Of a stretch of DNA of 5,650 bases, positions 1-4,055 are shown in pieces. Source of the DNA: a virus (taxonomy: Duplodnaviria > Heunggongvirae > Uroviricota > Caudoviricetes); the IMG/VR virus record IMGVR_UViG_2541047502_000017; one strand, written 5' to 3'. Position numbers and translations under genes: made by a program. The notes under the pieces are model-generated. The model saw only the letters and a list, made by a program, of their open reading frames with translations, did not search any database and had not been told where the DNA came from. Numbering within the stretch: position 1 is the stretch's first letter; every line of letters begins with the position of its first letter.

Positions 1-1578
1 CTGTTACCCGTTTATGCACAGAAAACCGGGAAAACCACCGATGAAATTGCTGCCATGCTGGCGGATGAGACCTGGATGTCCGGTGCCGAATGTCTGGCAC
101 ATGGATTTGCTGATCAGGTGACGCCAGCCGTTAAGGCAATGGCATGTATTCAGTCAAAACGTACAGAGGAATTTAAAAAGATGCCGGAATCCATTCGAAA
201 CATGATTACTCCGCCACGCAACAGTGCTCCACGCGTACAGGATGATGGACCTGCAGCCTCCCGGACGCCAGTGCAGGCAGCAGCACCTGTGGTGGATGAA
301 AACAGTATCCGTGCGCAGGTACTGGCAGAGCAAAAAGCGCGTGTAAACGGTATTAATGATCTGTTTGCCATGTTTGGCGGGCGTTATCAGACGCTGCAGG
401 CTCAGTGTCTTGCCGATCCTGAATGTTCGCTGGAGCAGGCCCGCGAAAAGCTGTTGAACGAGATGGGGCGCGAGTCCACGCCATCTAATAAAAATACCCC
501 GGCTCATATTTATGCCGGAAACGGTAATTTTGTGGGGGATGGGATCCGCCAGGCGCTGATGGCGCGTGCCGGATTTGAAAAAACCGAACGTGATAATGTC
601 TACAACGGGATGACCCTGCGTGAATATGCCCGTATGTCACTGACTGAACGGGGTATTGGGGTTTCCAGTTATAACCCGATGCAGATGGTCGGTGCGGCGT
701 TCACACACAGTACGTCTGACTTCGGTAATATTCTGCTGGATGTTGCGAACAAAGCCATTCTGCAGGGCTGGGAAGATGCCCCTGAAACCTATGAACAGTG
801 GACGCGGAAAGGTCAGTTGTCTGATTTTAAAATTGCCCATCGTGTGGGTATGGGGGGCTTCAGTGCTCTGCGTCAGGTGCGTGAAGGGGCGGAATATAAA
901 TACGTCACCACCGGAGATAAACAGGCCACTATTGCACTGGCGACCTATGGCGAGCTGTTCAGTATCACCCGTCAGGCCATTATCAATGATGATCTGAATA
1001 TGCTGACCGATGTCCCGATGAAACTGGGCCGTGCGGCGAAATCCACTATTGCCGATCTGGTTTATGCCATTCTGACGTCTAACCCGAAAATCTCCACAGA
1101 TAATGTAAGTCTGTTCGATAAAGCGAAACATGCAAACGTACTGGAGAGCGCTGCAATGGACGTGGCATCGCTGGATAAAGCCCGCCAGTTGATGCGCGTT
1201 CAGAAAGAGGGGGAGCGTCATCTGAATATTCGTCCTGCGTTCGTACTGGTACCGACGGCGATGGAGTCTGTTGCTAACCAGGTCATTCGCTCCTCAAGTG
1301 TCAAGGGGGCTGACATTAACGCCGGTATTATTAACCCGGTGAAAGATTTTGCGACCGTTATTGCAGAGCCTCGTCTTGATGATAACAGCCAGACCACCTT
1401 CTACCTGGCTGCGTCAAAAGGCTCCGATACGATTGAAGTGGCTTATCTCAACGGTGTGGATACGCCATATATTGATCAGATGGAGGGCTTCAGTGTGGAT
1501 GGCGTGACAACGAAAGTGCGTATTGACGCCGGTGTCGCGCCAGTTGATCACCGCGGTCTGGTGAAATGTACGGCGTAA
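1..1578 (+). CDS. Fused prohead protease / scaffold-like linker / HK97-fold major capsid protein; 3' portion only (5' end lies upstream of the window)
   Basis: Frame 1 is open from base 1 (no stop before the ATG at 55 listed in the ORF track), so the gene enters from upstream. The first ~30 codons (…KTTDEIAAMLADETWMSGAECLAHGFADQV) resemble the C-terminal end of ClpP/S49-type phage prohead proteases. A Pro/Ala/Gln-rich, charged linker follows, then ~350 aa that read like an HK97-fold major capsid protein. Stop TAA at 1576-1578. Confidence 0.8.
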   Translation: MLPVYAQKTGKTTDEIAAMLADETWMSGAECLAHGFADQVTPAVKAMACIQSKRTEEFKKMPESIRNMITPPRNSAPRVQDDGPAASRTPVQAAAPVVDENSIRAQVLAEQKARVNGINDLFAMFGGRYQTLQAQCLADPECSLEQAREKLLNEMGRESTPSNKNTPAHIYAGNGNFVGDGIRQALMARAGFEKTERDNVYNGMTLREYARMSLTERGIGVSSYNPMQMVGAAFTHSTSDFGNILLDVANKAILQGWEDAPETYEQWTRKGQLSDFKIAHRVGMGGFSALRQVREGAEYKYVTTGDKQATIALATYGELFSITRQAIINDDLNMLTDVPMKLGRAAKSTIADLVYAILTSNPKISTDNVSLFDKAKHANVLESAAMDVASLDKARQLMRVQKEGERHLNIRPAFVLVPTAMESVANQVIRSSSVKGADINAGIINPVKDFATVIAEPRLDDNSQTTFYLAASKGSDTIEVAYLNGVDTPYIDQMEGFSVDGVTTKVRIDAGVAPVDHRGLVKCTA

Positions 1579-1601
1579 ACGTCGCAGACAACAACTCTGA
1601 T

Positions 1602-1621
1602 GGCCCGTAAGGGCTTTTTTT
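1602..1621 (+). terminator. Possible weak intrinsic terminator/attenuator after the capsid gene
   Basis: GGCCC-GTAA-GGGC hairpin (4-5 bp GC stem, GNRA-type tetraloop) at 1602-1614, immediately followed by a run of 7 T at 1615-1621, 24 nt after the capsid stop. The short stem makes it weak. Confidence 0.35.
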
Positions 1622-1632
1622 GTACCTGAAAT

Positions 1633-1651
1633 CAGCCCCTGAACGGGGCTG
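1633..1651 (+). other. Perfect 7-bp stem-loop just upstream of the next gene's ribosome-binding site (possible RNA stability or processing element)
   Basis: CAGCCCC (1633-1639), loop TGAAC, GGGGCTG (1645-1651) form a perfect inverted repeat. No T-run follows. The GGAGA Shine-Dalgarno at 1654-1658 and the ATG at 1665 come right after. Confidence 0.3.
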
Positions 1652-1664
1652 TGCGGAGACAGTT

Positions 1665-1988
1665 ATGGCAAAGAATTTTGTAGAAGAAGGAAAAACGGTG
1701 GCGATTGTTGCCAGTGCAGCCATCAGCAGCGGAGATCTGGTGCAGGTGGGCGATGTTTTTGCGGTGGCGCTGACCGATATTCCACAGGGTGAAACAGGCG
1801 ACGGCATGACCGAAGGTGTGTTTATGCTGCCTAAGCTGAAAACGGATGACATGAAAACGGGTAAGAAGGTTTATCTGAAGTCAGGAAAAGTTCAGCTGAC
1901 TAACAGCGGCTCTGATCCGCTGGTCGGGGTTGTCTGGGCAGATGCCGGAACCAGTGCAGAAGAAGTGCCGGTAAAACTCAATGTCTGA
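1665..1988 (+). CDS. Small head protein, DUF2190-like (putative capsid decoration/cement protein)
   Basis: 107-aa ORF. ATG at 1665 is preceded by GGAGA at 1654-1658; the ORF-track start at 1620 is a TTG lying inside the hairpin/T-run and is unlikely. Gly/Val-rich, beta-rich composition and position immediately after the major capsid gene. The family name is from memory and not verified. Stop TGA at 1986-1988 overlaps the next start. Confidence 0.65.
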   Translation: MAKNFVEEGKTVAIVASAAISSGDLVQVGDVFAVALTDIPQGETGDGMTEGVFMLPKLKTDDMKTGKKVYLKSGKVQLTNSGSDPLVGVVWADAGTSAEEVPVKLNV

Positions 1989-4018: not shown

Positions 4019-4042
4019 GCCCCGGTTATCCGGGGCTTTTTT
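4019..4042 (+). terminator. Rho-independent terminator/attenuator between the major tail gene and the chaperone gene
   Basis: GCCCCGG (4019-4025), loop TTAT, CCGGGGC (4030-4036) give a perfect 7-bp GC-rich stem, followed directly by TTTTTT (4037-4042). It starts 20 nt after the V-like stop and lies just upstream of the G-like ribosome-binding site. Confidence 0.55.
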
Positions 4043-4055
4043 GCAGGTGGAGAAC

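Follow-up and report, generated by a model that had tools for sequence, protein, structure and literature searches.

The described elements closest to the locus considered here are terminators within the late operons of tailed phages and stem loops that stabilize or insulate mRNAs. In phage T7, the terminator T-phi lies after gene 10, which is a comparable position. Parallels among stabilizing stem loops are the 5′ hairpin of ompA, those that take part in processing of the pap operon, and synthetic hairpins that insulate ribosome-binding sites. In the P22-like phage L, as at the present locus, terminators are found inside the late operon after the procapsid/coat module; in both cases a terminator follows the most abundant structural gene of an operon that is transcribed from one antiterminated late promoter (PMC8022706). 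Internal late-operon terminators are reported to be common, but 'their roles are not known'. As explanations, the phage L authors put forward partial termination or the blocking of spurious transcription that is not antiterminated (PMC8022706). Unlike the locus described below, phage L has no second hairpin described beside the ribosome-binding site.

At the level of the terminator sequence itself, a map across ∼10,000 sequences shows that the strongest sites carry the motif GC(U)7RU (Battaglia et al., bioRxiv 10.64898/2026.05.29.728758). In this motif, GC represents the last two bases of the stem (positions −11/−10) and RU is at positions −2/−1. The motif also emerged with the Escherichia coli polymerase and is reported to be necessary for strong termination; mutations at the GC or RU positions that preserve the stem nearly abolish termination (bioRxiv 10.64898/2026.05.29.728758).

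The DNA analysed, referred to here as the window, is 5650 bases in length and belongs to the late operon, with head and tail genes, of a lambdoid prophage of E. coli. It is 99–100% identical to DNA of phages mEp460, cdtI and Ayreon and of many O157:H7 prophages; in O157 Sakai, the counterpart of the region is in prophage Sp3, between ECs_0829 and ECs_0830. The two hairpins of interest are both found in the 86 nt gap between a capsid gene and a small head gene (Table 1). The capsid gene shows a match to Pfam Phage_capsid_4 (E = 1e-54) and has the RefSeq name 'ClpP-like prohead protease/major capsid protein fusion protein', which agrees with the position downstream of the major capsid gene given in a first-pass annotation of this DNA. 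The 107 amino acid product of the small head gene matches Pfam Phage_cement_2 (PF09956, formerly DUF2190; E = 9e-21), and its homologue in mEp460 is annotated 'head decoration'. Genes that follow are those for head–tail joining, Z, U, tail tube protein V, G/GT and tape measure. A gene for a Q-like antiterminator is present in mEp460, and five terminators are annotated within the late operon of this phage; one of these follows the capsid gene and another the tail tube gene. A promoter scan of the capsid–cement gap revealed no promoter-like site on the + strand. A TATACC-like stretch was considered as a promoter and rejected, as the window reads TGTACC and the key −10 positions are missing. There is an 8 nt overlap (1981–1988) between the cement gene and its downstream neighbour (Pfam Gifsy-2 family, FII-like), and no hairpin separates the two; thus, any drop in expression past the cement gene must be translational and not a result of termination.

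Table 1. Positions of features at the capsid–cement junction of the window, and pairwise identities among 30 representative relatives.
Feature	Position	Strand	Description	Pairwise identity
ClpP-like prohead protease/scaffold/major capsid fusion gene, 3′ part	55..1578	+	From the open reading frame list; truncated by the 5′ end of the window	
Capsid fusion gene, last 90 nt				56%
Capsid fusion gene stop codon	1576–1578	+	TAA	
14 nt preceding hairpin 1				29%
Hairpin 1	1602..1615	+	Stem and loop below	
Hairpin 1 stem	1603–1606/1611–1614	+	GCCC/GGGC	99.2%
Hairpin 1 loop	1607–1610	+	GUAA; 14 different tetraloops in the representatives	43%
GC(U)7RU motif	1613..1623	+	G1613 C1614, U-tract 1615–1621, G1622 U1623; exact match to the consensus	
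Linker (11 nt)	1622..1632	+	GUACCUGAAAU; family consensus A-U-A-C/U-C-U-G/A-A-A-A-U (AUAYCURAAAU)	
Hairpin 2	1633..1651	+	Perfect 7 bp stem CAGCCCC/GGGGCUG (1633–1639 with 1645–1651), loop UGAAC	
Shine–Dalgarno sequence of cement gene	1655–1658	+	GGAG, 3 nt past hairpin 2	
Cement/decoration gene (small head gene)	1665..1988	+	107 amino acids; start ATG 1665–1667; from protein alignment	
Cement gene, first 45 nt				64%
Third codon positions				39–44%

Hairpin 1 is small. The 4 bp stem has an energy of −6.7 kcal/mol, and an optional G1602–U1615 pair extends it to 5 bp and −8.8 kcal/mol (z = −2.2; 5 of 200 shuffles are as good). Seven U residues, at 1615–1621, come directly after the stem. Thus, the hairpin with a GNRA loop and seven T proposed for positions 1602–1621 is confirmed by sequence and folding. 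The GNRA tetraloop is present in the window as GUAA, but this property is not conserved in relatives, which display many loop sequences. When the 67 nt stretch from 1598 to 1664 is folded, both hairpins form (−27.8 kcal/mol, z = −3.5), in line with the structure prediction that the first-pass annotation had called for, and the local hairpins dominate in equilibrium folding of the window (P = 0.87 and 0.93).

Hairpin 1 has the properties of an intrinsic terminator, a GC-rich hairpin followed by a 7–9 nt U-tract on the coding strand. In GenBank, a rho-independent terminator is annotated at this site in mEp460, Ayreon, mEp213 and mEp043, and these annotations are predictions as opposed to mapped RNA ends. 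The annotated sequence is identical to that of the window in mEp460 (NC_019716, 6334–6353) and Ayreon (MF807953, 6325–6359), and the one in mEp213 (NC_019720, 6294–6312) shares the GCCC-N4-GGGC-U7 core. All four records mark hairpin 1 alone; hairpin 2 and the linker are unannotated. Hairpin 1 is therefore an already known terminator, and hairpin 2 together with the fixed module is a modest new addition that is ordinary in kind. Accepted in vivo terminator stems are 4–17 bp long with energies below −7 kcal/mol. The hairpin 1 stem is at the lower limit of accepted lengths, and efficiency of termination may therefore be low. A simple terminator-pattern scan of the window gives seven sites, compared with 5.5 ± 2.3 in shuffled sequences, which is not above chance. 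Significance thus has to come from comparison with relatives.

Relatives were gathered by way of the cement protein and a DNA pattern. This yielded 73 distinct intergenic sequences, all from Enterobacterales prophages; hosts are Escherichia, Salmonella (Gifsy-2), Klebsiella, Enterobacter, Kluyvera, Yersinia, Pantoea, Edwardsiella, Sodalis, Proteus, Rahnella, Morganella and Providencia. Thirty representatives with flanks less than 85% identical were compared in detail. Unrelated matches of the DNA-pattern search were selected by the pattern itself, and many are start codons (ATG CCT/TCT AAA), so these are not taken as evidence. Both hairpins are kept at the homologous position in 71 of the 73 sequences, over many genera, and the loss of either stem from related phages, which the first-pass annotation had named as an outcome that would tell against its proposal, is not what is found in this set. 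The hairpin 1 stem is nearly invariant and the coding regions on both sides have diverged considerably (Table 1). A terminator score of the d'Aubenton-Carafa type is positive in all 30 representatives (+17 to +31). The capsid stop codon is 20–31 nt upstream of the hairpin 1 stem in this set. A boxB/nut hairpin of the lambda type was also considered, as the stem GCCC…GGGC resembles boxB, and was rejected because boxB has a conserved GNRA-like loop that is recognized by N protein, whereas the 4 nt loop here is freely variable (14 loop sequences in 30 representatives).

The terminator region in the window contains an exact match to GC(U)7RU. The sequence GCTTTTTTTRT is present only once in the window, where 0.01 occurrences are expected, and only once in the 44.5 kb mEp460 genome (0.07 expected), where it is at the capsid terminator. 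Among the 30 representatives, GC is conserved in 29, exactly seven U residues in 29, and both the R and the U that follow in all 30. This near-invariance is explained by the termination consensus. The window resembles the HUB ('hairpin, U-tract, bubble-edge') definition of Battaglia et al. in having GC, U7 and GU at 1613–1623. It differs in that the hairpin is very short (4–5 bp) and that termination is predicted. The match places the predicted RNA 3′ end at U1623, and not at 1621, near which the first-pass annotation would have the transcript end. A release signal that appears to be so precisely tuned argues that termination itself, and not only protection of RNA, is under selection.

Host RNA polymerase that is unmodified by the phage Q antiterminator would pause and free the RNA at about U1623. 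Termination at hairpin 1 would leave capsid-operon transcripts with a defined, hairpin-capped 3′ end, and would stop spurious or non-antiterminated transcription from entering the downstream head-completion and tail genes. Polymerase modified by Q should ignore the terminator and is expected to read through. As such, the benefit of a perfect termination site in a Q-dependent operon is not directly explained. The amounts of cement protein required are usually close to those of the capsid protein, and a strong stop just before the cement gene would therefore be counter-intuitive.

Hairpin 2 is the more stable of the two structures (−13.9 kcal/mol, z = −3.6; 1 of 200 shuffles is as good). The perfect 7 bp stem loop originally described at 1633–1651 is confirmed. 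It is found in 71 of the 73 distinct intergenic sequences when each is folded singly, and z is below −2 in 23 of 24 correctly delimited regions, as opposed to 2 of 30 length-matched controls from upstream. The pairing is kept while the sequence changes. About 20 distinct 5′ arms are found, and stem variants include CAGCCCC/GGGGCUG, CCGGCAC/GUGCCGG, CCGGCU/AGCCGG, CGGCCCC/GGGGCCG, CCGGUGC/GCAUCGG, CUGGCUC/GGGCCAG and GGCCUCUC/GAGAGGCC. An alignment by MAFFT alone mis-registers hairpin 2, and RNAalifold found only three of its pairs; the sequences were for this reason re-aligned with a covariance model. In the covariance-model alignment of 77 sequences, both partners have changed in six of the seven pairs. 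Covariation reaches a score of 0.279, compared with 0.113 in shuffles (none of 500 is as high) and 0.02–0.10 when partners are slid; 87% of the hairpin 2 cells are paired, compared with 33–65% with slid partners. As this alignment is fitted to the model, the counts lean toward structure, and folding without an alignment agrees with them.

The position of hairpin 2 is also fixed. It always precedes a Phage_cement_2 gene, and its end is always 0–3 nt from the GGAG, which is invariant in the family alignment. The first-pass annotation had the stem adjoining the ribosome-binding site of the small head gene, and this holds both in the window and in the family. Loops of hairpin 2 are often UUCG (8 of 30) or GNRA, and this enrichment points to selection at the RNA level. 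Thus, as judged from comparative sequence data, hairpin 2 is a genuine conserved, structured cis-acting RNA that is kept by compensatory changes. No Rfam family matches it, and it is unannotated in the mEp460, Ayreon and mEp213 records.

With respect to function, we infer termination in vivo at hairpin 1, read-through under Q, and a role for hairpin 2 in the read-through RNA. The best reading, which is considered fairly probable, is that the terminator is constitutive and that the hairpin after it belongs to the leader of the downstream message, which it would stabilize or insulate. In read-through RNA, hairpin 2 would act post-transcriptionally by locking the GC-rich leader into a fixed fold that keeps the AU-rich linker, the GGAG and the AUG open. 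It may also protect the downstream cistron in the manner of a 5′-proximal stem after cleavage in the AU-rich linker. The ompA, pap and ribosome-binding site-insulating stems are similar to hairpin 2 in that a stable GC stem is found immediately upstream of the ribosome-binding site. The AU-rich single strand ahead of hairpin 2 is a candidate RNase E entry site. The likeness is one of geometry alone (0–3 nt from the GGAG, and an AU-rich linker).

Hairpin 2 may alternatively serve the upstream gene. In Q-antiterminated read-through mRNA, it would be the main barrier to 3′-to-5′ exonucleases after endonucleolytic cleavage downstream, backing the short hairpin 1 and raising the half-life of the capsid message. 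This is the main rival and is possible, albeit somewhat unlikely. The far greater stability of hairpin 2 relative to hairpin 1 (−13.9 vs −8.8 kcal/mol) is consistent with it. So is the distribution of hairpin lengths. Relatives with a longer first hairpin of 7–8 bp (Pasteurellaceae, Morganella psychrotolerans and the sequence L284) have no hairpin 2, and all members with a 4 bp hairpin 1 possess it. The absence of hairpin 2 beside long first hairpins fits protection of the 3′ end at least as well as it fits a leader role, but the correlation comes from only a few independent lineages. Distant relatives from other Proteobacteria have a single strong capsid–cement hairpin, sometimes without a U-tract, which is also in keeping with a 3′ barrier. 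Moreover, many other phage terminators run directly into a ribosome-binding site without a second hairpin between; translation past a terminator therefore does not in general depend on a hairpin 2. Against a 3′ barrier, the strict 0–3 nt spacing to the GGAG would not be needed for such a role, and this spacing is compatible with the leader hairpin proposed above. In the more distant relatives from Citrobacter youngae and Scandinavium (L047 and L052), the second hairpin is followed by a U-rich run (TTTTCCTTTT or TTTTTTG), a layout that resembles two tandem terminator-like hairpins ahead of the cement gene.

Between the U-run and hairpin 2 there are 11 nt (1622–1632), one less than the 12 nt given in the first-pass annotation. 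Pairwise identity of this linker among the 30 representatives is 81%, and that of the 14 nt preceding hairpin 1 is 29%. Specificity of the motif to the capsid–cement junction was ruled out by unrelated phage terminators that share the same bias. Two mEp460 terminators that lie past the Q gene continue with GTGCCTGA and GTACCTGT, and other than at the capsid site the motif is found in that genome only after these two. They are near-duplicates at 39837–39867 and 40514–40547 that flank gp51, just downstream of the Q-like antiterminator gene, and consist of CCCGCC-CCTGA/ACTGA-GCGGG plus T6–7 followed by a GTRCCTG motif like that of the capsid terminator. The first of them (39837–39867) may be a tR′-type terminator of the late promoter.

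Viral contigs were also scanned for CGGG-T7-RTRCCTGAA, a pattern with an unrelated stem end. At least 120 stretches matched, compared with 1 and 0 for two composition-matched controls. The matches represent at least 75 distinct hairpin contexts with unrelated flanks. At 96 unselected CCCGC-N4-GCGGG-T7 sites, the bases that come next are A (81), T (73), G (78), C (53), C (59), C/T (76) and G (55). Another 84 terminator-like sites from the same contigs have a similar but weaker downstream bias, and T-runs without a preceding hairpin are flat, with no bias. The bias of phage terminators past the U-run is roughly T7-A-T-G-C-C-(C/T)-G, often leading straight into a GGAG and start codon, and positions one and two of it agree with the GC(U)7RU motif as published. 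The first ∼7 bases of the linker, by this comparison of sequences, behave as part of the terminator context. Pairing of the linker (YCU) with the Shine–Dalgarno sequence was also assessed. Only two pairs, both invariant (YC with GG), can form in every sequence; a third forms in 32 of 75 sequences and a fourth rarely, and covariation gives no informative support. On average, the Shine–Dalgarno bases are predicted to be unpaired with a probability of 0.41.

These data bear on whether the linker and hairpin 2 constitute an operator for a trans-acting factor that tunes cement translation, which could be a phage structural protein acting by feedback, Hfq/ProQ, or a small RNA. Together, the U-rich tract and the A-rich linker resemble Hfq sites of the generic type. 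The linker is also more conserved than the coding DNA of the relatives (∼60% identity), and among the matches that carry hairpin 2 the module is at the capsid–cement junction only. However, the first ∼7 linker positions follow the bias common to unrelated terminators, the invariant R-U is accounted for by the termination consensus, and the linker motif elsewhere in mEp460 is only after the two other terminators. The stem sequence of hairpin 2 is freely variable, such that only its shape could be recognized. An operator of this type is considered improbable.

In O157 Sakai, no Hfq-bound small RNA is listed at the locus, which also speaks against such an operator: the Sp3 intergenic region (910082–910167) has no EcOnc entry when the coordinates of the Tree 2014 supplement are checked in the Sakai genome. 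The Hfq, RNase E and TIER-seq tables consulted likewise gave no hit for a transcript end or cleavage here. Known prophage RNAs were considered individually and rejected. HnrS, a 66 nt multicopy prophage small RNA (HnrS/EcOnc10–12), is encoded between lysis and terminase genes on the opposite strand. EcOnc22 (of EcOnc22–24) is elsewhere, between tail genes, and EcOnc13 and EcOnc32, the only Sp3 entries in the table, are also elsewhere, at ∼901.3–901.7 kb.

A broader proposal is that lambdoid late operons carry a cis-regulatory RNA not described before, formed by the linker and hairpin 2, for example a shape-specific operator or processing signal that would proportion capsid and cement output. 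This is regarded as unlikely. If it were true, the near-perfect terminator before the cement gene would be part of the control and not a simple stop.

The first-pass annotation had also proposed an attenuator. The terminator signal it implies is present, as the annotations in related phages and the GC(U)7RU match show, but regulated termination is not supported, there being no conserved antiterminator, leader peptide or Rfam match. For termination to be switched, alternative pairing between the hairpins or with flanking RNA would be needed. A GCCC/GGGC core is common to the two hairpins in sequences of the E. coli, Klebsiella and Yersinia types, such that their arms can swap, and the equilibrium probability of hairpin 1 is ∼0 in 5 of the 30 representatives and 0.15–0.19 in two more. 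But a swap is impossible where hairpin 2 has the form CCGGxx (Gifsy-2, Providencia, Proteus and Pantoea), and it is thus unconserved; in the window the local hairpins are favoured. In addition, hairpin 2 is transcribed only after the decision to terminate. The capsid stop codon is only a short distance upstream of hairpin 1, there is no leader open reading frame, the 14 nt before the hairpin are poorly conserved, and no Rfam leader or riboswitch matches at E ≤ 10. A regulated attenuator is thus very improbable. Among seven shared-core sequences (L006, L011, L017, L153, L189, L251 and L018), a nested three-tier fold is the local minimum free energy structure in five, with energies of −25 to −28 kcal/mol; L189 and L251 retain two hairpins in the local fold. 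In the nested structure the hairpin arms exchange partners and the U-run pairs with UGAAA of the linker.

Hairpin 2 was also viewed from the opposite strand. The minus strand continues past the hairpin with AUUUYAGRUAU, in which the A-rich end of the linker, read in reverse complement, supplies a short U-run, such that the two hairpins would represent a back-to-back bidirectional stop. The run has only 3–4 U residues, the terminator scan does not call it, and it has no GC(U)7RU match on the minus strand. An antisense terminator would also leave the fixed spacing to the ribosome-binding site unexplained, and it is highly unlikely that hairpin 2 has this role. The constitutive terminator followed by a stabilizing or insulating leader hairpin remains the preferred reading.

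At the capsid–cement junction, the newly proposed GC(U)7RU signature can be seen in a clean natural setting, fixed over wide phage divergence on a minimal hairpin and within an operon thought to be antiterminated. The junction thereby sharpens the question posed in the phage L paper of why late operons keep internal terminators (PMC8022706). Genome annotation has missed hairpin 2, a structured element that is small and well supported. The module could serve as a compact terminator-plus-leader part. The overall picture of phage gene expression is unchanged by the two-hairpin module.

An Rfam scan of the whole window (E ≤ 10) shows no match at the two-hairpin locus. There is a weak match to the fluoride riboswitch at 526–609 (+), within the scaffold/capsid coding region (16.7 bits compared with a gathering threshold of 34, E = 0.49), which is almost certainly due to chance. 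Two metagenome-assembled genomes (MAGs), labelled 'Bacillota bacterium' and 'Proteobacteria bacterium' (L008 and L009), encode a cement protein 98–99% identical to that of the window, and their intergenic region is identical to that of the window or differs by one base. A third MAG, labelled Geobacteraceae (L014), has an Enterobacter-type copy of the cement gene. These occurrences suggest contamination or mis-binning.

A second, stronger terminator-like hairpin is present in the window at 4019–4042 (+), directly 3′ of the tail tube gene V. It consists of GCCCCGG-TTAT-CCGGGGC followed by six T residues, and in mEp460 it is an annotated terminator (8751–8774). On its 3′ side, a GGAG at 4049–4052 and the start of the G chaperone gene follow, with no second hairpin.
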